NCBI RefSeq assembly: GCF_003044035.1
Contig: NZ_NVQC01000012.1
Coordinates: forward strand, 1-32,000
Direction: 5' to 3'
Source of the DNA: Candidatus Methylomirabilis limnetica
Lineage (GTDB): Bacteria > Methylomirabilota > Methylomirabilia > Methylomirabilales > Methylomirabilaceae
Length of the DNA stretch: 32,000 nt
The notes beneath the pieces were generated by a model, which did not search any database, had not been told where the DNA came from, and saw only the letters and a program-made list of their open reading frames with translations. How positions within the stretch are numbered: position 1 is the stretch's first letter; the number at the start of each line of letters is the position of its first letter. The position numbers and the translations under genes were made by a program. Of the stretch, positions 582-31,967 are shown piece after piece.

Positions 582-730
582 GCCGTGGAATATCACATAA
601 AAAAACGCGTGAGTCCAGCAAAAATGAAGGGGTTCATGAAACTTTTTTAAGGGGTATTCCGTCAGGAAGAAATCACACCTGTTTTATTACTCCATGCTCA
701 GTAGCGGCAAATTATGTGCCGAACAGTATT

Positions 731-1016
731 GGGACAGACACTATTTATTGAAATTCTTTCTTGATCTTCCCCTCTGCAACACGTGTCTTACTCGTCCAGT
801 TTCCTGCGCACCTCCCAGATGAACCCGCCTCTTCGCGGTGGCCGCTCTGTCATCGTGCGCATTCGAATCTCTGTCGTTCTGAAAGACCGCATGGCGATCA
901 TTCCCTCGTTACCTCACATGATACTGGTGGCCGGATGCAACGGTTTGGGTAATCCGTAGTATGCACGATCATGACCGTAAACACCACGAATCGTCACGAT
1001 AAATAGTGTCTGTCCC
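731..1016 (+). mobile_element. TIR-bounded ~286-nt non-coding element, copy 1 (full length)
   Basis: The left end is GGGACAGACACTATTTAT (731-748) and the right end is ATAAATAGTGTCTGTCCC (999-1016), which are inverted repeats. The interior aligns along its length with the copies at 2393, 3488 and 4948. Confidence 0.75.
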
Positions 1017-1079
1017 TATTTTCACGAATCGTCACGATAAATAGTGTCTGTCCCTATTTTAGGTGTCTGTCCCTATTTT
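985..1079 (+). repeat. tandem reiteration of the element right end (38 nt x2 plus a 16-nt third end)
   Basis: cacgaatcgtcacgataaatagtgtctgtccctatttt occurs at 985-1022 and again, identically, at 1023-1060. It is followed by agg and tgtctgtccctatttt (1064-1079). Confidence 0.9.
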
Positions 1080-1122
1080 CTATTTCTGTTTTACCGTCAA
1101 CGGGCGCTGCGATGGCGGCGGA

Positions 1123-2358
1123 TTACTTGCGATTTGATCCAGCGACCAGCCGGTATTCGACCAGGCGGCATTCCAGCGTGCCGTTATAGAGCGGAATCTT
1201 GCGCGAGGGCGCGAGACGGATCGCCTTCATCAGCGCCAATTCGCCGCACAGCACGTACGCCCGCCATCCCGGAAAATTGCGCTTGAGCGTGTCAGCGAAC
1301 GCCGCATATAACGCCGGCAGGTCTTCGTCCGTGCCCAGCCGCACGCCATACGGCGGATTCGTGATGATCAGACCTTCCGCGGTCGGCGCCGTTGCGGTGA
1401 GCGCGTCGGCCAGGCGCAATTCGATCAAGGCGCCCAATCCCAGCCCGGCGACATTGACCCGTGCGGCGGTGATAGCCGGCGGCGAGATGTCCGATCCGTA
1501 CAGTTGCAGGACCGCCGCCGCGCGGCCCGCCTCACCCCTGCGGGCGGCGTCTTCCTGCGCCGCCTGCCACGCTTCGGCGTTGAACCATGCCAGGCGCCGG
1601 AACCCGAACACGCGGCTGAATCCCGGCGCCATGTCGCAGGCCATCATCGCGGCTTCGATCAGGATCGTGCCGCTGCCGCAAAACGGGTCGACTAGGGGCA
1701 GCGCAGCGTTCCATCCGGCGAGCTTGAGCAATCCCGCAGCCAGGTTTTCGCGAAGAGGGGCTTCCAATGCGTCCTGGCGATAGCCGCGCTTGAACAGCGC
1801 CTCGCCGGACGTGTCGAGATAAAACGTGCACGTATCGGCGGTGAGGAAAGCATGGATGCGCACATCCGGGGCCGCCGTATCGACACTCGTCCGCTCGCCA
1901 ACCGCAGTCCGGAAGCGATCGCAGACGGCGTCCTTGATTTTCAGCGTGATGAAGTCCAGGCTGGTCAACGGCGACCGGCTCGCGGTGACATGGACGCGGA
2001 TGGTGTTGGCGACCGCGAACCACTGCGGCCACCGCAAGCGCAATGCCGCATCGTAGATATCCTGCTGGTCGCGATAGCGGCCGACTCCCACTTGCCAGAG
2101 CACGCGACTGGCAAGCCTGCTCCACAGGTTGATCGTGTACACCAGGTCGAGCCTGCCTTCGAACGCGACGCCGCCGTCGGTGGCGCGCGCACTCTTCGCG
2201 CCCAGTTTCTCCAGTTCCACCGCAAGCCCTGCTTCCAGTCCGCGCGGGCAGGTGGCAAAAAAGCACTCTTCGCCGGTGGCGGCCCCGCGTAGCGGCGCCC
2301 ACGCGGGTTGCGCCTTCGAATCCCGGGCTGAATACCTAGAATGGCTTGAGGACGACAA
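1123..2358 (-). CDS. THUMP-domain class I SAM-dependent RNA (N2-guanine/N6-adenine type) methyltransferase
   Basis: 411-aa ORF. It has an FFATCPRGLE...LGA THUMP-type N-terminus, SAM motif I DPFCGSGTILIEAA and catalytic motif IV NPPYG. The start is TTG at 2358 and there is no in-frame ATG nearby, so the start is uncertain. Confidence 0.85.
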   Translation of the reverse strand: MSSSSHSRYSARDSKAQPAWAPLRGAATGEECFFATCPRGLEAGLAVELEKLGAKSARATDGGVAFEGRLDLVYTINLWSRLASRVLWQVGVGRYRDQQDIYDAALRLRWPQWFAVANTIRVHVTASRSPLTSLDFITLKIKDAVCDRFRTAVGERTSVDTAAPDVRIHAFLTADTCTFYLDTSGEALFKRGYRQDALEAPLRENLAAGLLKLAGWNAALPLVDPFCGSGTILIEAAMMACDMAPGFSRVFGFRRLAWFNAEAWQAAQEDAARRGEAGRAAAVLQLYGSDISPPAITAARVNVAGLGLGALIELRLADALTATAPTAEGLIITNPPYGVRLGTDEDLPALYAAFADTLKRNFPGWRAYVLCGELALMKAIRLAPSRKIPLYNGTLECRLVEYRLVAGSNRK

Positions 2359-2392
2359 GGATCACCACCATAAAAAGAATCGTCAAAGTAGC

Positions 2393-2589
2393 GATGAACC
2401 CGCCTCTTCGCGGTGGCCGCTCTGTCATCGTACGCATTCTAATCGCTGTCGTTCCAAAAGACCCTTGGCGATCATTCCCTCGTTGCCTCACATGGTACGG
2501 GTGGCCGGGTGCAACGGTTCAGGTAACCCGTGGCATGCACGATCATGACCGCGAACACCACGAATCGTTGCGATAATAGTGTCTGTCCC
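2393..2589 (+). mobile_element. TIR-element copy 2 (5'-truncated, right end intact)
   Basis: It aligns to copy 1 from gatgaacccgcctcttcgcgg (copy 1 position ~818) to the right end aatagtgtctgtccc (ends 2589). The left ~87 nt, including the left TIR, are missing. Confidence 0.75.
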
Positions 2590-2669
2590 TATTTAAATCG
2601 CAGATGCCACCGGCGCAGACCGGAATAGCAAATGATGGCACTACGGCAGCCGCTGTGATATAAAGCCGC

Positions 2670-3416
2670 ATGCTTACGACCATGGAGCGCAAAGAACTGA
2701 TAGCACTGCAGGGTAAGAAGGAGCGCCAGAGGCGCGGGCTATTTCTCGTGGAGGGCGTAAAGCTCGTGGAAGAGCTGCTTCAGTCGAGATGGGAAGTGGA
2801 ACGTATCTTTGCCGTTGAGACGTGGAGCCCGGGACGAAAGACGCGCGCGCCAGTGGTGCGCATCGGGGACAATGAGCTGGAGCGAGTGTCGGCCATGGAG
2901 GCACCAAACCAGGTTCTTGCTGTCGTGCGCATTCCGAAAGCTGCTCCAGCACCGCCACCGGAAGGACTGGTTCTAGCGCTGGCAGGACTCCGCGATCCCG
3001 GCAACATGGGGACCGTCCTCCGGATCGCAGACTGGTTTGGCGTGTCACGAGTTATCTGCTCACTGGACTGTGCCGAGCGTTTCAATCCAAAGGTTGTCCA
3101 GGCAAGCATGGGTTCCATCTTCCGGGTACCTGTGCACCGGCAAGACCTTGCCGGATACCTTGGCGATTGCGCAAAGCACGTTGAGATCGTCGCCGCCTGC
3201 GCGGCTGGCGGTGAGAACCTGTTCGTCTTGACGCCGCGTGAGCCTGCCGTGGTGATTCTTGGCAGCGAAGGTCAAGGCATACCTGACGCCCTGATGTCGC
3301 ATGTGCGCTGCCGCATGACCATCCCGCGCGCAGGTCATGCGGAGTCGCTCAACGTCGCGGCCGCAGCCGCAGTAGTCTGCGCGGAGTGGAAGCGCGCGGC
3401 GCTATCACGCATGTAG
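2670..3416 (+). CDS. TrmH/SpoU-family RNA 2'-O-ribose methyltransferase
   Basis: 248-aa ORF with SPOUT motifs: GLRDPGNMGTVLRIADWFG, VILGSEGQGI and IPRAGHAESLNVAAAAAV. Confidence 0.85.
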   Translation: MLTTMERKELIALQGKKERQRRGLFLVEGVKLVEELLQSRWEVERIFAVETWSPGRKTRAPVVRIGDNELERVSAMEAPNQVLAVVRIPKAAPAPPPEGLVLALAGLRDPGNMGTVLRIADWFGVSRVICSLDCAERFNPKVVQASMGSIFRVPVHRQDLAGYLGDCAKHVEIVAACAAGGENLFVLTPREPAVVILGSEGQGIPDALMSHVRCRMTIPRAGHAESLNVAAAAAVVCAEWKRAALSRM

Positions 3417-3487
3417 TGCCTCAGAAGGTGTGAAGAAATACGATCGGATCTGCTGAGCTTTAACAGCCATGTGCCCGAGGCGGTCTA

Positions 3488-3705
3488 TTTTCCTGCGCAC
3501 CTCCCAGATGAACCCGTCTCTTCGCAGTAGCCGCTCTGTCATCGTGCGCCTCCGAATCGCTGTCGTTCCGAAAGGCCGCCTGGCAATAACTCCCTCGTTG
3601 CGTCACATGATACGGGTGGCCGGATGCAATGATTCGGGTAATTCGTGGCAGGCACGGGTCATGACCATAACCACCACGAATCGTTGCGATAATAGTGTCT
3701 GTCCC
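3488..3705 (+). mobile_element. TIR-element copy 3 (5'-truncated, right end intact)
   Basis: It aligns to copy 1 from tttcctgcgcacctcccagatgaaccc to aatagtgtctgtccc (ends 3705). The left TIR is absent. Confidence 0.75.
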
Positions 3706-3747
3706 TAATTTTAAAGTATCTGAGCCTGTCCCGCAAACTCTCGTTCA

Positions 3748-3826
3748 CCCTTCGACGCGCTCAGGGCGAACGGTATGGGCATTGAAAAGAAAGATGTTTT
3801 TCCATTCGTGCTGAGCCCGTCGAAGC
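3748..3826. repeat. GC-rich palindromic (REP/MITE-like) element
   Basis: Arm 1 is cccttcgacgcgctcagggcgaacgg (3748-3773). Arm 2 is ccattcgtgctgagcccgtcgaagc (3802-3826), an imperfect reverse complement of arm 1. An AT-rich ~28-nt spacer separates them. Confidence 0.5.
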
Positions 3827-3843
3827 ACAACAAGGGGTTTGTA

Positions 3844-3868
3844 GGACAGGCTCATCTGTCCCTATTTT
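3844..3868 (+). repeat. collapsed or solo ends of the TIR element
   Basis: The sequence is ggacag-gctcat-ctgtccctatttt. A left-end-like GGACAG is joined through 6 nt to a right-end CTGTCCCTATTTT, with no element interior. Confidence 0.5.
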
Positions 3869-3909
3869 CTGGAAGGTCAGCTCCGGGGCCTTCTTGCGCT
3901 TGGGCATAG

Positions 3910-4113
3910 TCAACGCTCCCGAGGCCTGATGCGATACTCCGGCGGGGACTCCCGTAAGGTCGCGCCGTTCTGTTGCCTGGCCGCTTCGCGAATCGTGCGC
4001 ATCCGATCTCGCAACGCGTCGAGCATCGCGAGTTTCTCCACTAAAGGAAGAGCGGTCAGATTCCGGCGAAGCGCCCGCTTGCTGTCGAGAATCCTTTGGA
4101 GGTCGAAGCTCAT
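3910..4113 (-). CDS. small hypothetical protein (67 aa), translationally coupled to the upstream nucleotidyltransferase-fold gene
   Basis: Its ATG overlaps the upstream stop as ATGA (4110-4113). The protein looks helical and charged (MSFDLQRILDSKRALRRNLTALPLVEKLAMLDALRDRMRTIREAA...). Confidence 0.5.
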   Translation of the reverse strand: MSFDLQRILDSKRALRRNLTALPLVEKLAMLDALRDRMRTIREAARQQNGATLRESPPEYRIRPRER

Positions 4114-4601
4114 GTCCCGCTCTGGAGGAAGGTTCTCTCAAATTCGCGCCACCGATCAACGAGTCCGTGCCGCGCCAGGATGGCCTGAAAACGTTTGGCC
4201 TCCAGCGCGTCGGCCTCGACGAACTGGAGTAGCCGCGCCTTGTCTTTGGCCCGGCCGGTCTGCAAAGCGATCGCCGCGAGATGCTCCGCCGTCAAGACCC
4301 ACGCTGCCGTGCCTTCCACGTCCACAGTCACGGCCTCGGCCAGCGCTTCTTCCACCAGCGGACCTGTGGGCGGCAGAAACTGAACGGGCCATCCGGCAAT
4401 AACGATGTATTCGCCCTCGACAACGCCGCCCCGGGCCGTGAGGTAATCGAAGATGGAGCGCGGGCTGATCAGGACCTGGCGGGGTTGTTGTTTAAACCCG
4501 ACGAAGATGTCCACGTCCAGCGTGGCCACCGGTTCGAGGTAAAACGTCGCGCCCACCGCCCCGCCAATGGCGTAGCGCTCCACGACCCTGTCGGTCTCCA
4601 T
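4110..4601 (-). CDS. putative minimal nucleotidyltransferase-fold protein (163 aa)
   Basis: The internal ATG at comp. 4599-4601 gives METDRVVERYAIGGAVGATFYLEPVATLDVDIFV, a GG-x(n)-DxD pol-beta-type NTase signature. The longer 243-aa ORF upstream of this ATG looks like read-through of GC-rich sequence. Confidence 0.6.
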   Translation of the reverse strand: METDRVVERYAIGGAVGATFYLEPVATLDVDIFVGFKQQPRQVLISPRSIFDYLTARGGVVEGEYIVIAGWPVQFLPPTGPLVEEALAEAVTVDVEGTAAWVLTAEHLAAIALQTGRAKDKARLLQFVEADALEAKRFQAILARHGLVDRWREFERTFLQSGT

Positions 4602-4692
4602 CTGATTGATGATACTGATGACGCGGGCAATGCTCACGGCAAGGTCCTTTCCGATGGCCGAAAGTGGAGCGCCCGCTGCAAGTCCGCCTCCG

Positions 4693-4830
4693 TATCCGCC
4701 GCTGTCCGGTGACGCATTCGTGGACCAGGGACTTGCGGTAGGCGACGAACACTTCGATCTGGCGCTCAATTCCACGCGCAACCTGTCGCACTTCGCCGAG
4801 CTTCTTGTCGAGATAATAGGTAATGGGCCT
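4693..4830 (-). pseudogene. hsdS: type I restriction-modification specificity subunit (HsdS) C-terminal remnant
   Basis: The frame reads ITYYLDKKLGEVRQVARGIERQIEVFVAYRKSLVHECVTGQRRI. This matches the conserved distal coiled-coil region of HsdS proteins (..yLD.K...ID.li...e.qIe.L.eyR.sLI.eaVTGk). No target-recognition domain lies upstream. Confidence 0.45.
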
Positions 4831-4947
4831 ATGCACTTCACTCAACTGCCCGCAACTGACTGCACTTGGTGCGCATCTCGCACTCAATATGTTGTGGTAA
4901 AACCGGCGTCGGTTGATTTAAGTGCATAGGCCCAATAGGTAATAATA

Positions 4948-5233
4948 GGGACAGACACTATTTATTGAAATCCTTTCTTGGTCTTCCCTCTGCAGTACGC
5001 GTTTTACTCGTCCCAGTTATCCTGCTCACTTCCCAAATGAACCCATCTCTTTGCAGCGGCCGCTCTGTCATCGTGTACCTTCGAATCGCTGTCGTTCCGA
5101 AAGACCGCCTGGTGGTCATTCCCTCATTGCGTCACATGATACGGGTGGCCGGGTGCAACGATTCGGGTAATCCGTGGTATGCGCGATCATGACCGTACAC
5201 GCCATGAATTGTCACGATAATAGTGTCTGTCCC
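4948..5233 (+). mobile_element. TIR-element copy 4 (full length, 286 nt)
   Basis: The left end is GGGACAGACACTATTTAT (4948-4965) and the right end is ATAATAGTGTCTGTCCC (ends 5233). It is the same length as copy 1. Each end sits in an AATAG-N9-CTATT mini-palindrome. Confidence 0.8.
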
Positions 5234-5239
5234 TATTTT

Positions 5240-5569: not shown

Positions 5570-5806
5570 CTCCGTACGCTACTCCGCCCAGTGGCTTTAC
5601 CGACACGCCTTTTGCTCACCGTGAGCAAGCCACGCCGATGGCGTCGGCGACGTCCTGCAAGAAATGAAACCCGAATCCTGACATCTGGCCGCATGCGGGG
5701 CCTGAAGGCGCCTAACGCTAGGTTTCAGCCGCACCTGGAAGCCAGAGCGAGGCGCGAGCGGAGGCTGGAAGACGTCGGCCGCAAACCCTTGTTCGACTGT
5801 GTCTGG

Positions 5807-6208
5807 CTAGGGAAAAAGGCCGAGGCGCATCCACTGCTGCCGGGCCGCGACCTGGGCCGTGCTGTTCATCCCCAAGCGCACCACTGTTGTCCTACCGCTC
5901 GGGGTGAGCCCTTCGATCTCTCCGCTCTCGGCAGCGATGCGGAAATGGTCCTCCCACTGGTCCTCCCGCGGGTGGAACAGACGGACAACCACATGGCTCT
6001 CGGGATCATTGCCGCTGACGTGCGTGGCCTTATAAAGATTGCAGGCGCGGCAGGCCAGCGCCCAATTCGCGGCAGTATCGTCGCCGCCCCGGGAGACTGG
6101 CACAATATGTTCGACTTCTAGCGGCAGGTTGAAGACGGCTTCCGGCGCGTGGCAATACTCACACCGATGGCCAGCCCGGAGCGCCACCTGCGTATAGTGC
6201 GGGTTCAT
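5807..6208 (-). CDS. HNH endonuclease (small, stand-alone)
   Basis: 133 aa. It has CEYCHAPE...EVEHIVPVSRGGDDTAANWALACRACNLYK, an HNH/zinc-ribbon motif set. Confidence 0.8.
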   Translation of the reverse strand: MNPHYTQVALRAGHRCEYCHAPEAVFNLPLEVEHIVPVSRGGDDTAANWALACRACNLYKATHVSGNDPESHVVVRLFHPREDQWEDHFRIAAESGEIEGLTPSGRTTVVRLGMNSTAQVAARQQWMRLGLFP

Positions 6209-6785: not shown

Positions 6786-6971
6786 CTATTCGGTATCCCA
6801 AGCCAGGGTCATGCCTTCCTGCGCTAGCGCTGTTCGTACGGTGTGCCGCACGAGTGCAGCGATCTCGATCGCATGGCGTGCCTCCTCTTCGGTTACTGCC
6901 TGGTCTTCACCGGGATAGCGCGCCGTGATCGCAAATGGGGTGAGTTCTTCTGCTTCATGGAGGGCTTCCAC
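6786..6971 (-). pseudogene. HEPN-domain protein, C-terminal half only
   Basis: 61 codons from GTG, with an in-frame TAG immediately upstream (comp. 6972-6974). ...ELTPFAITARYPGEDQAVTEEEARHAIEIAALV resembles the C-terminal helices of PF05168-type HEPN partners of nucleotidyltransferases. The N-terminal helices are missing. Confidence 0.5.
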
Positions 6972-6994
6972 CTACCACCTTTTGCCGAATCACT

Positions 6995-7315
6995 TCATCG
7001 GGGACGCTCATAAAGCACCTTCCCTTCCAGGGAGGCCGGGCGAGCTACGGTGCCAGGAATATCACGGTCGCGCTCGAACTCCTCAGGGGTGATGACCACT
7101 ACGTCCCGCGCAAACCCCAAACCGGCGAGCGCCCGATCCATCGCTACCATCAGTGACCGGCGACTGCCTGTCAGCGGGCATACCACCAGGAGATCGACGT
7201 CGCTTCGCTCATCAGCCGTTCCCCGCGCTTGCGAGCCAAATAGAATCACGCGGTGTGGTTTAAATTGAGCGACCAGACGATCCCTGGCTTGATTTAATAC
7301 TTGCTCGCTAATCAT
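6995..7315 (-). CDS. minimal nucleotidyltransferase (MNT-type, HEPN/MNT module)
   Basis: The internal ATG at comp. 7313-7315 follows GGGGGAG. MISEQVLNQARDRLVAQFKPHRVILFGSQARGTADERSDVDLLVV contains the GS-x(n)-DxD motif. The 160-aa track ORF is an upstream extension. Confidence 0.8.
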   Translation of the reverse strand: MISEQVLNQARDRLVAQFKPHRVILFGSQARGTADERSDVDLLVVCPLTGSRRSLMVAMDRALAGLGFARDVVVITPEEFERDRDIPGTVARPASLEGKVLYERPR

Positions 7316-7581
7316 CTCCCCCTCGCAACTTTCAGATTCCTGCGCACACGCTAACTGAGACTGCCGTAGAAGCCGAGACGAGCTCGGACGAACTCCAACT
7401 CGGCCTTCAAGGGACTCAGCCTCGCAACTGAGTCTTGTCAAGCAGGTTAAACATAGCTCGGTTGACACGGGTGTCAAGCAAAATGAAACCGTTAGAACAG
7501 CAAAGGATCAACTAGAACACACGACCCTGTGCGACGATCGGGCTTGCGGCAGACGCTGCCTTCTGGCAGAATAACGGCACG

Positions 7582-10518: not shown

Positions 10519-10560
10519 TAAAAAACAAGAAGGAGGTCCCGCATCAGGACCTCCTTCTTG
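10519..10560 (-). terminator. rho-independent terminator of small-gene copy A (also placed to terminate the converging hydrolase gene)
   Basis: A perfect 14-bp stem, caagaaggaggtcc (10526-10539) / ggacctccttcttg (10547-10560), encloses a 7-nt loop. A T6 tract follows on the minus strand (A6 at 10520-10525). Confidence 0.7.
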
Positions 10561-10586
10561 TTAAGAACCGCCGTAGCGCCTGAGTC

Positions 10587-10874
10587 TTACTCGATTATCT
10601 CGAGGACCCGACTCGTGACATTAGTGGCAATCTGCATGAGCTCACTGCGAAGCGCCTTGCGCTCATCAAGGACCAATATTTTATCGAGGTTGCCGAAGTT
10701 GCCTATCTCAATCGTAATGATTCGCTCCACCGAAGCAGCCAAGTGGTCCCCGAAGATGTGAAACCTCGAAACCCCTGGCTGAGCAAGCCAGAACTTCTTC
10801 ATCTTATCACGCAAGAAGTTATCCAACTCCTCTTCTCGCTTTGGGTCAACTTCACACAAGATGTGATAAACCAT
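10587..10874 (-). CDS. hypothetical small protein (95 aa), tandem paralogue A
   Basis: ATG preceded by AAAGGAGAGG. It has a clean ORF and its own terminator. It is 89/95 identical to paralogue B. Confidence 0.7.
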   Translation of the reverse strand: MVYHILCEVDPKREEELDNFLRDKMKKFWLAQPGVSRFHIFGDHLAASVERIITIEIGNFGNLDKILVLDERKALRSELMQIATNVTSRVLEIIE

Positions 10875-11079
10875 TGTACCTCTCCTTTCACACCAGATTA
10901 AAGTTGCGACAGCCTGCTCATCATCCTCGCGCGCTCAGCCCCTGAAAAGGCCCAACAAAAACACAAAACCTTTGCGGAGGTACAATTGCACGAAGGACAG
11001 CTTGTTGTCAACCAAATTACGGTTGGCTTGTCTTGTCAGACCCCTCTCATGATTCCTATCGTCGCCTGAACGAGGACCT

Positions 11080-11118
11080 AAAACAAGAAGGAGGTCCCGC
11101 ATCAGGACCTCCTTCTTG
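11080..11118 (-). terminator. rho-independent terminator of small-gene copy B
   Basis: It has the same 14-bp stem (11084-11097 / 11105-11118), followed on the minus strand by TTTTAG. Confidence 0.65.
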
Positions 11119-11144
11119 TTAAGAGCCGCCGTAGCGCCTGAGTC

Positions 11145-11432
11145 TTACTCGATTATCTCGAGGACCCGACTCGTGACATTAGTTGCGATCTGCATGAGCT
11201 CACTGCGAAGCGCCTTGCGCTCATCAAGGATCAAAATCTTATCGAAGTTACCGAAGTCGCCTATCTCAATCGTAATGATTCGCTCCACCTTATTAGCCAA
11301 GTGGTCCCCGAAGACGTGAAACCTCGAAACCCCTGGCTGAGCAAGCCAGAACTTCTTCATCTTATCACGCAAGAAGTTATCCAACTCCTCTTCTCGCTTT
11401 GGGTCAACTTCACACAAGATGTGATAAACCAT
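11145..11432 (-). CDS. hypothetical small protein (95 aa), tandem paralogue B
   Basis: The ATG at comp. 11430-11432 has the same RBS as copy A. The 125-aa track ORF is an upstream extension. Confidence 0.7.
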   Translation of the reverse strand: MVYHILCEVDPKREEELDNFLRDKMKKFWLAQPGVSRFHVFGDHLANKVERIITIEIGDFGNFDKILILDERKALRSELMQIATNVTSRVLEIIE

Positions 11433-11971
11433 TGTACCTCTCCTTTCACACCAGATTAAAGTTGCGACAGCCTGCTCATCACCCCCACGCGCTCGACCTC
11501 TGAAACGGCCCAACGGAAGCACAAGACCCTTTTGTGCGGGTAGAATTGCACTAAGGGCGACTTGTTGTCAACCAAATTACGGTTGGCCTGTCTTCTCACG
11601 TTGTTCATCGGTTCCCTTAGGAGGCGTCAAAAATCAACATTTACATCCACCAAAGCAACAAACCCCCTTGTATCCCCCTTTTGTAAAGGGGGAAGTTGCT
11701 GGAGAGGTTGTGCGAGATTGCAATCTAGTTAATGCTCCCCGTAATATATTGTCGCCTTTCATCTCAAGATGTAAGGCAGGCTCATGAGCGAGGTCTCTCA
11801 CGCCGAGTTGTCGCGACTTTCCGCTTGACAGCGGGATCGAAGAACGGTATCACACTATGCCTAATCTGTGTGGGGCATCTCCGCCGTCGGCCTTGCCCTT
11901 CACCTTCCAGGGCCCGCGAGGGAGGGGCTTTTCCTATTGCTTAGCGTGGCTGTGTGTAGCTGTTTTTCACG

Positions 11972-26761: not shown

Positions 26762-27433
26762 GTGTCCAGACGAGCTCGCACCAGACTGAAGAGCGCAGTG
26801 TGGGGCGTTGCGCTATTACCCCTACTGCTTCTCCTGTATCGGTTCCTTACCGATCGGCTCGGCCCCAATCCGATCTCGTACGCCACTAACCTGCTCGGCG
26901 ACACCACGCTCCGACTGCTGCTCGCCAGCCTTGCCCTGACGCCCCTTCGTATTCTGTTTGGGATCGCGTGGCAAATGAGCCTGCGGCGTCTGCTGGGATT
27001 GTTCGCGTTCTTCTACGTCTGTCTCCACTTCACCGTCTGGATCGCGGTAGACCACTTCTTCGACTGGGGGCAGCTCGCAGCCGACATCGTCAAGCGGCCC
27101 TACATCACCGTTGGCATGCTCGCCCTGACGCTACTGGTGCCGCTTGCCGGCACTTCCACATCAGGAATGGTGAAGCGTCTGGGGGGCAAGAACTGGCGGC
27201 GACTGCACAGGCTGGTCTACGTCATCGGTCTGCTCGCCGTGCTGCATTACCTGTGGCTGGCCAAGAAGGGCGTGAACGACCCGTATCTCTACGCCGGGGT
27301 GCTGGCCGTCCTGCTGAGCATTCGCCTGTGGGACTTGGCTCGACGCAAAGCTTGGTTGGGCTTTCCGACATGGCGTCGTGGAGGGAATTCTCCGACAAGG
27401 ACCGCCAATGAAATGCGTGGAACGTCTACTTAG
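26762..27433 (+). CDS. msrQ: protein-methionine-sulfoxide reductase haem-binding membrane subunit (YedZ-type)
   Basis: The GTG start lies 5 nt after the msrP stop. It has multiple TM helices with conserved His residues (LHFTVW, LHRLVY, LHYLW). The last ~35 codons are encoded by a repeat also present at 29101. Confidence 0.85.
   Translation: MSRRARTRLKSAVWGVALLPLLLLLYRFLTDRLGPNPISYATNLLGDTTLRLLLASLALTPLRILFGIAWQMSLRRLLGLFAFFYVCLHFTVWIAVDHFFDWGQLAADIVKRPYITVGMLALTLLVPLAGTSTSGMVKRLGGKNWRRLHRLVYVIGLLAVLHYLWLAKKGVNDPYLYAGVLAVLLSIRLWDLARRKAWLGFPTWRRGGNSPTRTANEMRGTST
27324..27413 (+). repeat. ~90-bp dispersed direct repeat, copy A (forms the 3' end of msrQ)
   Basis: gcctgtgggacttggctcgacgcaaagcttggttgggctttccgacatggcgtcgtggagggaattctccgacaaggaccgccaatgaaatg aligns with 29101-29190, with scattered substitutions and no indels seen. 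Confidence 0.8.
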
Positions 27434-27572: not shown

Positions 27573-27878
27573 TCAATGAGCCTCAGCGTAGACCTTGACT
27601 TCTCTCTCAAGACGGTCACCTAGCTCATCCTCCTCGACATCAAGGTCATACTGAGCCTGGAGCCCGATCCAGAACTCAGGTGATGTGACAAAGTAGCGGG
27701 CCAGACGCAGGGCCGTATTGGCCGTCACGCTCCGCTTTCCCAAGGTGATCTCATTGATGCGGCGTGGATCAACTCCAATATCGAGAGCCAGCCGATGCTG
27801 ACTGAGACCCAGCGGCTTTAGGAACTCCTCCTGCAGGACTTCTCCGGGGTGGATAGGTGCCATCTTCTGTTTTGCCAT
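27573..27878 (-). CDS. higA: HigA-type XRE-family HTH antitoxin (101 aa if translated from its own ATG)
   Basis: MAKQKMAPIHPGEVLQEEFLKPLGLSQHRLALDIGVDPRRINEITLGKRSVTANTALRLARYFVTSPEFWIGLQAQYDL is the canonical HigA pattern. A GAGGAG RBS lies upstream of the ATG at comp. 27876-27878. Confidence 0.8.
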   Translation of the reverse strand: MAKQKMAPIHPGEVLQEEFLKPLGLSQHRLALDIGVDPRRINEITLGKRSVTANTALRLARYFVTSPEFWIGLQAQYDLDVEEDELGDRLEREVKVYAEAH

Positions 27879-28121
27879 CCGATGTAACTCCTCGTGATAG
27901 TCCGTGATCTCCACCTCAAAAGCATCGCTACCTCGCCAGGCGAAGCAAATCCGCCATTGATCATTGATACGGATCGAATGCTGCCATGTGCGATTGCCTT
28001 TGAGCTTTTCCAAACGATTCCCGGGAGGGGACAGAAGATCTTGCAATGTAGCTCTTGTCAAGGAGGGCTGAGGCGTCTTAGGCGGCTTCGTCTGAAACGC
28101 GCGTGATACGTCGCGGTCCAC
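27879..28121 (-). CDS. higB: HigB-type (RelE/ParE superfamily) toxin with no stop codon, reading in frame into higA
   Basis: PGNRLEKLKGNRTWQHSIRINDQWRICFAWRGSDAFEVEITDYH is the canonical HigB core. The candidate GTG start is at comp. 28119-28121. After DYH the frame continues EELHRM-AKQK... without a stop. Confidence 0.6.
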
Positions 28122-28287
28122 GAGACGTAACCCTTCGCCCCGCTTGGGTCTGATGGGCGCGTAACATCTCACACAGTTTGTGAAGGTCGTAGTCGACTTC
28201 GACAAGCAACGCCTCTCGCGCGGCGCGCACCTCGGCAACTACCGGATCAACCCACGGCTCCTTGGCATCAAAGTGCTCGGTCGTCAT
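28078..28287 (-). CDS. small hypothetical protein (69 aa), coupled downstream partner of the PIN gene
   Basis: Its ATG overlaps the PIN-gene stop by 4 nt. The pattern is DPVVAEVRAAREALLVEVDYDLHKLCEMLRAHQTQAGRRV. Confidence 0.5.
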   Translation of the reverse strand: MTTEHFDAKEPWVDPVVAEVRAAREALLVEVDYDLHKLCEMLRAHQTQAGRRVTSRGPRRITRVSDEAA

Positions 28288-28766
28288 GGTTCCTCTCCCG
28301 CCATCAGCTCGTCCGGGGTACAGAGAACAGGGGGCTCAAAGCCCAGGCTGCGGCAAACTCGCTCGACGCGAGGCCGGATGAGTGCATTGGCTATGTGGGT
28401 GGCGTTCCACGTCATCAGGTAATCGATGCCCTGGGATGCGGCTATCGCAATGTGAAGTGCATCCGCCCGGGCATGTTGGGGAAGTCCCGCGTGGCGGAGA
28501 ATGTGATCGGCGATTTCCTCGGCAAGTGGACTGGTATCGACAGCTTCAATCCCATCGAGCCAAGCAAGGCGGCGCGCGGACGCTTCAGCGTCCCCCCGCG
28601 ATATCTCCACGAGCACAAGCTCAGATACGAACAGCTGGAAGGAATTGCGTCGACGGTCCCACCATTCGTGCGTCAGCTGCTGCCGGGCCGCCGTGATCAG
28701 GTCCCGGCTGGGCTGGGCGGCGAGGTAGCTAATGATCGAGGTTTCAAGGTAGATCGTGGGAACCAT
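28284..28766 (-). CDS. PIN-domain (VapC-like) nuclease
   Basis: 160 aa. It has an acidic N-terminal strand IYLETS, SELVLVEI, ADALHIAIA and the TWNATHI motif typical of PIN-fold proteins. Confidence 0.7.
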   Translation of the reverse strand: MVPTIYLETSIISYLAAQPSRDLITAARQQLTHEWWDRRRNSFQLFVSELVLVEISRGDAEASARRLAWLDGIEAVDTSPLAEEIADHILRHAGLPQHARADALHIAIAASQGIDYLMTWNATHIANALIRPRVERVCRSLGFEPPVLCTPDELMAGEEP

Positions 28767-29100: not shown

Positions 29101-29190
29101 GCCTGTGGGACTGGGCGCGACGCAAAGCCTGGTTGGGATTTCAGGCATGGCGTCGTGGAGGCCATTCGCCGACAAGGACCGCCGATAAAA
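29101..29190 (+). repeat. ~90-bp dispersed direct repeat, copy B
   Basis: It aligns with 27324-27413 in the same orientation. Confidence 0.8.
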
Positions 29191-29346
29191 TGGGGCGGAT
29201 TAATCCCCGGCCATTTTTGCCGATGATCGCGCGATCGGGATCGATCTCCTCCCGACCTCCCTTCAGACCATTCTAGATCTCCTAGTCCATGGCTTGGTGT
29301 ATTATCAGAACGTGGCTGTTTTATATTATTGGTATATTAATAAGAT

Positions 29347-29374: not shown

Positions 29375-29380
29375 ATAGCC

Positions 29381-29656
29381 ATGACAGTCAAACTGAAAGA
29401 TATGCGACCCGAAGGAGTAGTGACCCGGATCGGCAAGGGGGCGCGAGTCGTGATTCCAGCCGCGCTCCGTAAAGCACTCGCGCTTCACCCGGGCGACCTT
29501 GTGGTCCTTCAGGTCGAGCAGGACACGTTGCGGCTGATCCCGCTTCGGCAGGCCATTGCTGAGGCACAACACCGCGTTCGCCAGTACATCCCGGTAGGCA
29601 CTGCCCTTACCGAATCACTACTCCAGGAGCGCCGGAGAGAGGCGCAGCGTGAGTAG
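29381..29656 (+). CDS. vapB: AbrB/SpoVT-family antitoxin
   Basis: 91 aa. It has the swapped-hairpin motif RIGKGARVVIPAALRKALALHPGDLVVL. Confidence 0.8.
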   Translation: MTVKLKDMRPEGVVTRIGKGARVVIPAALRKALALHPGDLVVLQVEQDTLRLIPLRQAIAEAQHRVRQYIPVGTALTESLLQERRREAQRE

Positions 29657-30032
29657 GGTCGTCCTCGATGCCTCCGCGATCCTTACCCTGCTAAATCAGG
29701 AGGAGGGAGCGGAACGGGTCGCTCCTTTCCTGGCGGATGCTGTGATCTCGACGGTGAACCTGGCCGAGGTCGTCACGCGTCTAGCTCTTGCAGGGATGCC
29801 GGAGACCGCCATTCGGGAGGCCTTAGCCCTCCTGCCTCTTGAATCGGTGCCGTTCGACGTCGGGCAGGCCATCGATGTGGGGCTGCTCGCGCCTACGACC
29901 AAGCTCTCAGGGCTGTCGCTGGGCGATCGGGCCTGCCTGGTCCTGGCCCACCGTCTCGACGCCACTGCGGTCACAGCGGATCAGGCATGGGTGGGCATCG
30001 ACGCCGGAGTGGCTGTCGAGCTGATCCGTTGA
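29649..30032 (+). CDS. vapC: PIN-domain toxin
   Basis: 127 aa with a GTG start overlapping vapB by 8 nt. It has VVLDASAILTLL, NLAEV, LSLGDRACL and VTAD acidic-residue motifs. Confidence 0.85.
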   Translation: MSRVVLDASAILTLLNQEEGAERVAPFLADAVISTVNLAEVVTRLALAGMPETAIREALALLPLESVPFDVGQAIDVGLLAPTTKLSGLSLGDRACLVLAHRLDATAVTADQAWVGIDAGVAVELIR

Positions 30033-30149
30033 TTCGGATGTTCACGAACACAGATTGGTCCGGTGCCCTGAGTTCAACGGAAGCCTGGCCAAGGGGGAAC
30101 CTATACGGCTCCATGTCGTGCACATGCTGCCAATTGCGGATTTCGGTCC

Positions 30150-30324
30150 ATCGTGAACGCCAGGATCACTTCATCGTGAACGCGAAGATCACTCGATCGT
30201 GAACGCCGGGATCAGCCATCGTGAACACGTAGATCGGTATCGTGAACACGTAGATCGGTATCGTGAACACGCGGATCGGTATCGTGAACACGCGGATCAG
30301 TCATCGTGAACACGTAGACAACCC
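30150..30324 (+). repeat. eight tandem 21-23-bp direct repeats (ATCGTGAAC[GA]C-N4-GATC...) upstream of istA
   Basis: The units start at 30150, 30173, 30196, 30218, 30239, 30260, 30281 and 30303. Confidence 0.9.
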
Positions 30325-30422
30325 CCGGGAAATCGGCGACCCTTACTCCCATGAGCGGGTGCCGAGAGCAACAGCGACGTTGGATGGTCCAGCGCGCCAT
30401 TCCGCTCCAGGAAGGAGTGGCA

Positions 30423-31967
30423 ATGGCGACCGAGCGACTACCCATGCGTCAGATCCGAGAGATCCTCCGCCAGAAGTGGACCCTGACCCGTAGCCACCGG
30501 CAGGTGGCCTCTAGCCTCGCGGTCAGTCTTGGGACCGTGACCGGCGTCCTCCGCCGGGCAACCCACGCCGGGCTTGACTGGCCCCACGTCCAGACCCTGA
30601 CCGATGACGCCCTGGAGATCCGTCTCTACGGCGCACCAGCCACCCCCGGGGTGACCCGCCCGCTCCCCGATTGCGCCTACCTGCACACCGAACGACGCAA
30701 GCCCGGGGTGACGTTAGAACTGCTCCACCTCGAGTACCTGGAGCAGCATCCCACCGGCTACCGCTACACCCGCTTCTGCGATCTCTACCGCCGTTGGCTG
30801 GCCCGCCATCGCCTCACTATGCGCCAGGACCATCGAGCCGGCGAGAAGATCTTCGTCGATTACGCCGGGCAGAAACCGACCCTCGTCGATCCCACCACCG
30901 GCGTGGTTACCGAAGTAGAGCTCTTCGTCGGTGTCCTCGGGGCCAGCAACTACACCTACGCGGAAGCCACCCGCACCCAGCGGGTCCCCGACTGGCTCGG
31001 GAGCCATCAGCGACTCCTGGCGTTCATGGGCGGGGTGCCGAGCGCCATTGTCCCGGACCAGTTGAAGACCGGGGTCACCGTCCCTTGCCGGTACGAGCCC
31101 GGCCTGCAGAGGACCTACGAAGAGTTCGCCCAGCACTACGGCACCACGATCCTCCCCGCCCGGCCGGCGAAGCCACGGGACAAGGCGAAAATCGAAGTGG
31201 CCGTGCAGATCGCCGAACGGTGGATCCTCGCCCGACTCCGGCACGAGGCGTTCGGCTCGCTAGGAGCCCTGAACGCCCGGATCTGGGAACTGCTCACCGC
31301 CCTGAACAGCCGCCGAATGCGCTCCTACCAGGCGAGCCGCCAGGAGCTGTTCGAGCGGCTGGACCGTCCGGCGCTCCGGCCCTTGCCCCCGGCGCCCTTC
31401 GTCTACGGCGAGTGGAAACTCGCCCGCGTGAACATTGACTACCACGTGGAACTCGACGGCCACTACTACTCGGTGCCCCATGCTCTGGTGCACGAACGAG
31501 TGGACGTCCGCAGCACGGCCATGACAGTGGAGATCTTCCACCACGGCCAGCGAGTGGCCGCCCATGTCCGCAGCATTTCCCGCGGGCGGCACACCACCCT
31601 TACCGCTCACATGCCCAAGGCCCACCAGCAGCACCGGGAGTGGAGTCCCTCTCGGCTCATCGCGTGGGCCGAGACCGTCGGGCCGCAGACCGCCGCCCTG
31701 GTCGAGGCCATCCTGGCGAGCCGCCCCCACCCGGAGCAGGGCTACCGGTCGTGTCTGGGGATCCTGCGCCTCGCGCGGCGAGATGGGCCCCTGCGGCTCG
31801 AGGCGGCGTGTACCCGGGCACTCGCAGTGGGCGCGCGCTCCTACCGGCACGTCGATGCGATCTTGAAGCACGGACTCGACCGTTCTCCAGTGCCGGACGC
31901 CGGTTCAGTCCCCACTGCCCGCCCGGTCATCCACGACCAGTTGCGCGGGCCCACCTACTATCAGTGA
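30423..31967 (+). CDS. istA: IS21-family transposase IstA
   Basis: The ATG at 30423 follows GGAAGGAG. It has an N-terminal HTH (MRQIREILRQKW..SHRQVASSLAVSLGTV) and a DDE region (VDYAG...V.D..K...E) with the characteristic IstA C-terminal domain. Confidence 0.9.
   Translation: MATERLPMRQIREILRQKWTLTRSHRQVASSLAVSLGTVTGVLRRATHAGLDWPHVQTLTDDALEIRLYGAPATPGVTRPLPDCAYLHTERRKPGVTLELLHLEYLEQHPTGYRYTRFCDLYRRWLARHRLTMRQDHRAGEKIFVDYAGQKPTLVDPTTGVVTEVELFVGVLGASNYTYAEATRTQRVPDWLGSHQRLLAFMGGVPSAIVPDQLKTGVTVPCRYEPGLQRTYEEFAQHYGTTILPARPAKPRDKAKIEVAVQIAERWILARLRHEAFGSLGALNARIWELLTALNSRRMRSYQASRQELFERLDRPALRPLPPAPFVYGEWKLARVNIDYHVELDGHYYSVPHALVHERVDVRSTAMTVEIFHHGQRVAAHVRSISRGRHTTLTAHMPKAHQQHREWSPSRLIAWAETVGPQTAALVEAILASRPHPEQGYRSCLGILRLARRDGPLRLEAACTRALAVGARSYRHVDAILKHGLDRSPVPDAGSVPTARPVIHDQLRGPTYYQ

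Follow-up and report, generated by a model that had tools for sequence, protein, structure and literature searches.

The window analysed here (the whole 32,000-nt stretch, positions 1 to 32,000 of contig NZ_NVQC01000012.1 of Candidatus Methylomirabilis limnetica) carries, within positions 729-5236, four copies of one repeated element of about 290 nt with genes lying between them. A preliminary description of this DNA had reported four copies within 4.5 kb, all in the plus orientation although the intervening genes are on both strands, and our reading of the window, a repeat finder and a four-way alignment of the copies reproduced both the common orientation and the positions, the latter to within 1-3 nt. 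Between copies 1 and 2 lies a THUMP/RlmL-like methyltransferase gene (1123-2220, minus strand) and between copies 2 and 3 a SpoU/TrmH methyltransferase gene (2670-3416, plus strand), domain matches that agree with the THUMP and TrmH methylase cassettes proposed before. Copy 2 sits, as had been described, in the intergenic region of these two divergently oriented genes. The interval between copies 3 and 4 contains two small minus-strand open reading frames (ORFs; 3910-4113 and 4110-4637) without a Pfam match; a two-gene nucleotidyltransferase operon had been placed here, but the NTP_transf_2/HEPN pair is located at 6786-7477, outside the array.

Copies 1 and 4 are full length and copies 2 and 3 are truncated on the left. 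Copy 1 extends over about 290 nt from 729 to 1018 (731-1016 without the TA/TT of the inverted repeat), with inverted repeats at 729-745 (TTGGGACAGACACTATT, one mismatch) and 1002-1018, and copy 4 measures 291 nt (4946-5236; 4948-5233 without the TA), with perfect inverted repeats at 4946-4962 and 5219-5235. In the truncated copies, at 2392-2592 and 3489-3707, the right inverted repeat is present at 2575-2591 and 3691-3707, respectively, and the four-way alignment showed a common core and an invariant right end. The terminal inverted repeats (TIRs) recognised in the preliminary description are thus present but longer than had been noted, measuring at least 17 nt (TAGGGACAGACACTATT / AATAGTGTCTGTCCCTA), with conserved bases beyond them (...GGATATA on the left, TATTTTCC on the right); a fixed sequence, TATTTT / GGATATA, flanks the element and may be part of it. 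Full copies have TA on either side (copy 4: ...TAATA/GGGACAG ... CTGTCCC/TATTTT), a dinucleotide that flanks most copies and also the gene-bearing unit presented below, and which may belong to the repeat itself. The 16-nt end motif TGTCTGTCCCTATTTT occurred nine times in the window when up to three mismatches were allowed, compared with about 0.09 expected, and none of 100 shuffles reached nine.

The search for an autonomous partner with the same TIRs, which had been recommended, was carried out as a translated search and returned a Y1 transposase unit of 746 nt on a Methylomirabilis-type contig (L047:4861-5606), hereafter the master element, which is bounded by perfect 17-nt inverted repeats TAGGGACAGACACTATT. 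Its intact ORF (L047:4917-5594) encodes 225 amino acids and has its stop codon inside the downstream repeat. Alignment showed that every copy of about 290 nt, including the truncated window copies, consists of master positions 1-145 and 601-746 fused at one and the same junction. Copy 4 aligned with 1-145 and 601-746, copy 1 with 3-145 and 595-746, copy 2 with 90-145 and 601-746, and copy 3 with 73-145 and 601-745. As one junction is shared by all copies, a single deletion event produced the miniature element, which was amplified afterwards. The deletion comprises 455 nt, a length that is not a multiple of three and shifts the frame, and it removes the HUH and catalytic-tyrosine motifs, so that the copies are non-autonomous.

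Remnants of the Y1 gene were found on the minus strand of all four window copies, covering amino acids 1 to about 49 and about 181 to 221 and broken by stops and by the frameshifting deletion. In copy 1 the N-terminal remnant, with an in-frame stop, lies at 816-956 and the C-terminal one at 756-868, both on the minus strand. In copy 4 amino acids 1-49 are found at 5034-5180, again on the minus strand and with an in-frame stop, and amino acids 183-221 at 4973-5089; the two segments read RIVAPGHPYHVTQ followed by a stop and GN, and ...TMTERPL...GRPRK. The earlier statement that the frames are not conserved and the element is non-coding therefore holds in that no protein can be encoded now, but it did not take in these traces of a coding past.

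The protein encoded by the master element matched Pfam Y1_Tnp (E 5.9e-16), and its best NCBIfam model was that of the REP-associated tyrosine transposases, where REP stands for repetitive extragenic palindrome (RAYT; NF047646, 74.3 bits, E 8.7e-21), the IS200 model scoring 23.4 bits. H60-x-H62, Y119 and N123 were invariant in the homologue alignments. An AlphaFold model (pLDDT 83.7) gave as best PDB fold match 4ER8, the E. coli RAYT bound to a REP hairpin (E 4e-8), followed by IS608 and ISDra2 TnpA. The family comprises at least 7,955 proteins at E<=1e-20, from Nitrospirota, Scalindua, Omnitrophica and Desulfobacterota. The gene order thiI - transposase gene - NMO was observed in L047, L102 and L107, and in L106 thiI was confirmed and the other neighbour had no annotation; the syntenic homologues are 87-91% identical to the L047 protein. 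Judging from these sequences, the transposase gene looks like a single, vertically inherited one, as RAYT genes have been described to be (PMC5581495). In L047 an extra ORF of 82 amino acids with a helix-turn-helix-like sequence (5614-5862), absent in L102 and L107, lies between the transposase unit and NMO and may represent a piece of some other insertion.

Units in which terminal inverted repeats enclose a RAYT-like gene have been described as TIRtrons/TIRYT (Di Nocera et al. 2013, PMC3733652). [quoted passage not shown] They have what defines a MITE, being short, without coding capacity, with the same inverted ends as an autonomous partner and derived from it by internal deletion.

Several points weigh against this assignment. 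The NF047646 score of 74.3 is below the curated cutoff of 80, and PDB chains searched with the transposase by sequence and by profile gave no match, so that at the PDB level the link to RAYTs is one of predicted fold only. No intact Y1 transposase of this type occurs in the window, and the evidence for it comes from related genomes. A search for empty sites among the metagenome loci yielded none, returning self-hits and one poor alignment only, and we infer the movement of the element from its distribution. The copies are about 12% diverged on average, and given this divergence the family may be active no longer. Orthologous trmH loci were considered as a further source of empty sites or of conserved synteny; the closest one, L108 (84% nucleotide identity), has different neighbours and no repeats, and the proposed comparison of related loci thus supplied a locus without the element, but not a readable boundary.

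The distribution of the element was then followed beyond the window. The exact right-end 20-mer matched six contigs of one Ca. Methylomirabilis metagenome-assembled genome, mostly at contig ends, and also contigs binned to other phyla. A contig retrieved from ENA (L010) encodes the exact window TrmH protein and has an identical four-copy layout. Thirteen of the 16 contigs read with this exact protein are shorter than 2 kb, and the short ones that were fetched begin or stop within the repeats; the many contigs of about 1 kb ending inside repeats are explained by a multi-copy repeat breaking the assemblies, of which this is the usual signature. When metagenomes were scanned with a 19-mer from the end, 86 loci were obtained. 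The orientation, site and motif counts reported here are drawn from the metagenome loci that were fetched, which were selected by the end motif. The copies group into 59 flank-defined sites and have spread to at least about 55 distinct sites, which confirms the expectation that many further copies exist elsewhere.

The 199 motif matches in these loci occur as solitary ends, doublets of 53 and 115 nt, elements of about 290 nt and tandem partial ends. Different interiors are thus bounded by the same 17-nt end, namely a 53-nt doublet (L059) and a 115-nt element (L007, L009, L061), both of which fold as long hairpins, the element of about 290 nt, and Y1-transposase units of about 740 nt (L069, L092). 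Inverted repeats of 17 nt were found on both sides of the gene in L047, L102, L104, L069 and L092, and the same ends surround homologues in other phyla, as in Manganitrophaceae (L104, perfect) and Scalindua japonica (L103), the loci L069 and L092 likewise belonging to other lineages. Genes for 331-amino-acid Y1_Tnp proteins were also observed on Verrucomicrobia-like contigs (L023:10023-11072, also L051, L060 and L099, and L005:1-254), with one 19-nt motif some 40 nt upstream of the start and none downstream; the end motif is kept even where the inverted pair is not visible. As a separate observation, the 115-nt (or 53-nt) element lies directly upstream of DUF123 (GIY-YIG-like) genes or fragments at L009:253-751 and 3893-4090, L007:6506-6730 and L059:2723-2948. 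In the window, tandem partial repeats of the right end follow copy 1 on the plus strand at 1019-1079, as detected by the repeat finder and the motif scan: 1023-1060 repeats 985-1022 exactly, and a third, partial unit of 19 nt (1061-1079) terminates in GTCTGTCCCTATTTT. Short degenerate units were also observed outside both ends of the element.

The distribution data also bear on the nature of the enzyme. An ordinary MITE moved by a DDE transposase, such as an IS630/Tc1-like enzyme with TA target duplication, would show TA on both sides of the full copies and inverted ends of at least 17 nt, as classical MITEs do, and both features are present here; the similarity to a Y1 gene would then be incidental. 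However, the TA is conserved together with further flanking bases around the Y1 gene itself in L047 and L104, and is replaced by other bases in the Scalindua locus L103, while Y1-gene sequence makes up the entire interior of the element. Moreover, no DDE transposase with these ends was found in the roughly 0.7 Mb of motif-selected loci, and the only DDE-type gene of the window (TnsB-like, 30351-31967) has end repeats of its own that differ from those of the element. A DDE-driven MITE is therefore very unlikely.

We also evaluated the suggestion of a structured-RNA repeat family, according to which the element would be an RNA gene or a regulatory module under selection (a small RNA, or a transcript-stabilising or terminating hairpin) with its orientation set by transcription. 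The copies are intergenic, like many REP and MITE elements that act on mRNA (PMC3733652), and a full copy folds better than shuffled sequences on both strands (z -3.8 and -3.3), but a folding signal of this kind is to be expected from inverted ends by themselves. The covariation term over 28 full copies was -0.98 kcal/mol, with any double change in only 5 of 53 pairs, and conservation is flat along the element, with values of about 0.87-0.97 in bins of 15 nt, the end that served as search pattern excepted. With Rfam the copies had no match, whether the gathering threshold or E<=1 was applied, a promoter and terminator scan showed no excess over shuffles, and the genes beside the copies occur in all four arrangements relative to them. 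As the interior is, in addition, decayed coding sequence, a selected RNA is very unlikely and the suggestion was not upheld.

The same layout had been compared with an integron or VCR-like array, in which single-gene cassettes would be captured and ordered through recombination at the repeats. An integron comprises the IntI tyrosine recombinase with attI and Pc, and its cassettes are promoterless ORFs, each with an attC hairpin, arranged in one direction. The single orientation of the repeats, the intervals of one or two genes and the trmH neighbourhood, which is not conserved in the repeat-free orthologue L108, would fit such an array; nevertheless, no integrase or other tyrosine or serine recombinase is encoded in the 32-kb window, and the repeats are transposon derivatives of about 290 nt instead of attC hairpins of 60-140 nt. 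Furthermore, the intervening genes are found on either strand and are RNA methyltransferases of a housekeeping type, single copies of the element occur at dozens of unrelated loci, and divergence among the window copies is as high as that from copies elsewhere, so that an integron is extremely improbable. Finally, a local segmental duplication that took in one copy and its flanks, which the preliminary description had named as its own refuting case, is refuted for this window: the copies do cluster within 4.5 kb in one orientation and another locus (L080/L035/L052) does carry two copies with similar flanks, but the four copies of the window have unrelated flanks, truncation occurred at different points (master 90 versus 73), and the copies, 84-90% identical to one another, are closer to those of other loci (up to 92%).

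For the TIRtron derivatives favoured here, a course of events can be outlined. One ancestral copy lost 455 nt from the middle of the gene with both ends kept, and the derivative of about 290 nt was then multiplied to many intergenic sites of Ca. Methylomirabilis genomes. By analogy with E. coli TnpA-REP acting on REPs and with IS608 TnpA, the single-copy transposase would recognise the ends on single-stranded DNA and cut and rejoin them, so that the miniature elements would be moved or copied in trans; movement in trans by a single genomic copy of the enzyme is the most likely arrangement. The window copies, with their mutual identity of 84-90%, would be old insertions, and the two left-truncated ones dead fossils. 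The retention of the right end in truncated copies, pointed out earlier, was rejected as a mechanistic clue: the search pattern itself selected the right end, and among the copies not picked by it a weak trend was seen (6 versus 2), but it was not significant once this ascertainment bias was removed.

The orientation of neighbouring copies was also analysed. Adjacent pairs of distinct sites within one locus were co-oriented in 14 of 15 cases, a count that leaves out one split copy and one locus with duplicated flanks, and with same-contig pairs in separate loci added the figure was 16 of 18 (two-sided binomial p ~1e-3), in agreement with the earlier claim that the same-orientation layout is not random. 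In L042 five ends within 3.6 kb, from other element types sharing the end, all point in the same direction. Where transposition is single-stranded and takes place at replication forks, as in IS200/IS605 elements, a bias in orientation is to be expected. Local co-orientation and clustering could arise from action on one strand at the replication fork with reinsertion nearby, and orientation tied to the fork is produced by IS608-type Y1 enzymes (PMC6006769).

GC skew was evaluated in the same loci. Raw skew agreed with element orientation in 17 of the 18 significantly skewed loci (absolute z above 2; 17 negative, 1 positive). After genes were separated by strand, agreement fell to 11 of 19 loci with a residual pooled component of about -0.011; the raw signal mostly reflects gene strand, and the bias in coding strand with respect to the element is a weak one (109 versus 128 kb). 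The cause of co-orientation is thus unproven, and the replication-strand link is kept as a suggestion. That co-orientation and clustering are the footprint of strand-specific, fork-coupled mobilisation by a domesticated-looking, single-copy RAYT/TIRYT enzyme is a tentative proposal, and one that we consider doubtful at present. If it were true, and if the orientation switched at the origin and terminus, it would provide genomic evidence that TIRYT/RAYT cargo travels via lagging-strand single-stranded DNA, as IS608 does, and the miniature with its gene remnants would be an intermediate caught in the act on the way from an IS200-like transposon to REPIN-type repeats.

Other features of the window were recorded. 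To the left of copy 1, at 1-569 on the minus strand, a truncated DruA/DUF4338-like ORF (117-569; PF14236, E 2.9e-7) continues into another frame with a CxxCH haem-binding motif (about 1-120), and on its sequence the region looks rearranged or pseudogenised. This DruA/DUF4338 fragment was considered as a partner of the element and rejected, as it is a truncated gene outside the element that recurs nowhere else with the motif. Directly after copy 3 lies a separate palindromic repeat of about 150 nt (3712-3870) with inverted ends of its own (GAGCCTGTCC... / ...GGACAGGCTC) and an 88% identical copy at L096:5538-5668; at its edge it terminates in CATCTGTCCCTATTTT (3853-3868, plus strand), a solitary partial TIRYT-element end. 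A pair of 33-nt inverted repeats (82% complementary) delimits a MITE-like unit of 131 nt (4814-4944) that abuts the left end of copy 4, and no further copy of this unit was found in the metagenome loci.

Further to the right, a tandem duplication of about 558 nt (10522-11600; 95% over 300 nt plus an 85% segment of 68 nt) contains pairs of small ORFs, and each unit begins with a 39-nt near-palindrome, AACAAGAAGGAGGTCC...GGACCTCCTTCTTGTT. A direct repeat of 92 nt (27324-27415 and 29101-29192, 88%) corresponds to the 3' end of a ferric-reductase/MsrQ-like gene and encloses a toxin-antitoxin islet (HigB-like and helix-turn-helix genes at 27573-28238, a PIN gene at 28284-28766), which has the appearance of an insertion by which the end of the gene became duplicated. 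Direct repeats of 21-23 nt (ATCGTGAACAC...) form an array just upstream of a TnsB/Mu-type transposase gene (rve and Mu-transpos_C_2, 30351-31967), and the whole region (30136-31967) probably represents the end of a transposon of the Tn7-like or Mu-like kind. Adjoining it, a small ORF and a PIN-domain gene (about 29380-30032, the PIN gene alone having been scanned) have the look of a VapBC-type pair.

The analysis removes a false lead, as the array represents neither a new cassette-capture system nor a new RNA. A repeat that fragments Methylomirabilis assemblies is now assigned to a described but little-studied class, which helps the assembly and binning of NC10 genomes. The element has some value for the question of how REPs and REPINs originate, since the link from gene to miniature can be read through the same ends, one junction and the gene remnants, and around homologues from at least three other lineages the 17-nt end has hardly changed. 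Moreover, the finding that neighbouring copies are co-oriented offers a cheap and testable prediction on how this class of enzymes moves DNA.

Elements of the IS200/IS605 family have subterminal hairpins and no terminal inverted repeats, insert 3' of a fixed tetra- or pentanucleotide and are present as several identical gene-bearing copies. With them and their miniature derivatives (PATEs) the present element shares the Y1 HUH superfamily, the fold match to IS608 and ISDra2 TnpA and the organisation as a small single-gene element, but it has true 17-nt inverted repeats without end hairpins, and its gene appears to be single-copy and syntenic. Classical MITEs (Correia/NEMIS, RUP, Nezha) resemble it in their length of 70-300 nt, inverted ends of 15-30 nt, lack of coding capacity, origin by internal deletion and intergenic placement. 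They differ in that the presumed mobiliser here is a Y1 tyrosine transposase instead of a DDE enzyme, with no target-site duplication demonstrated.

A REP unit is an imperfect palindrome of 20-40 nt with a 5' GT[AG]G foot. A single end of our element lacks both the palindrome and the GT[AG]G foot, and the end regions folded as DNA gave z values of -0.23 to +0.37 against shuffles; having neither hairpin nor foot, it is therefore not a canonical REP. The protein, in addition, scores under the NCBIfam RAYT cutoff, and the main repeat, with its gene remnants and a spacer of 256 nt, is far longer than a REPIN. In common with REPIN-RAYT systems (PMC3116915, PMC5581495), the transposase appears to occupy one conserved site and many short non-autonomous repeats share its flanks, inverted doublets (53 and 115 nt) fold into long hairpins and the copies are intergenic.

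On sequence grounds the window repeats are assigned to the TIRtron/TIRYT class. Quentin et al. 2018 (PMC6006769) found no REP-like hairpins for TnpA-Y1 subclass 2.1, with which they equate TIRYTs, and a correspondence of our element to this subclass is proposed. As in TIRtrons, a RAYT-like Y1/HUH gene lies between terminal inverted repeats and not between GTAG-footed hairpin REPs, the downstream repeat overlaps the gene end, and the protein is longer than canonical RAYTs owing to a C-terminal extension. Repeat copies are dispersed as singles, dimers and groups, the forms in which the published repeat families occur (PMC3733652). Many published TIRs share the motif GGGGWSAS, a feature of most but not all of them (PMC3733652, PMC6006769); the ends found here read (T/A/C)AGGGACAG or CGGGACAG and start with GGGACAG, matching seven of the eight motif positions with the first G missing. 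A literature search on the motif, and on Methylomirabilis with RAYT or MITE, returned nothing relevant, neither the NC10 host nor the repeat sequence being found in the library searched, and a term search of PMC3733652 met no mention of truncated or gene-remnant TIR copies, the word 'truncated' being absent. The singles, dimers and groups described in that paper differ from the abundant form observed here, an internal-deletion derivative of about 290 nt that retains both gene ends. The repeats thus belong to a known class, here in Ca. Methylomirabilis, and it is their co-orientation that goes beyond the ordinary.

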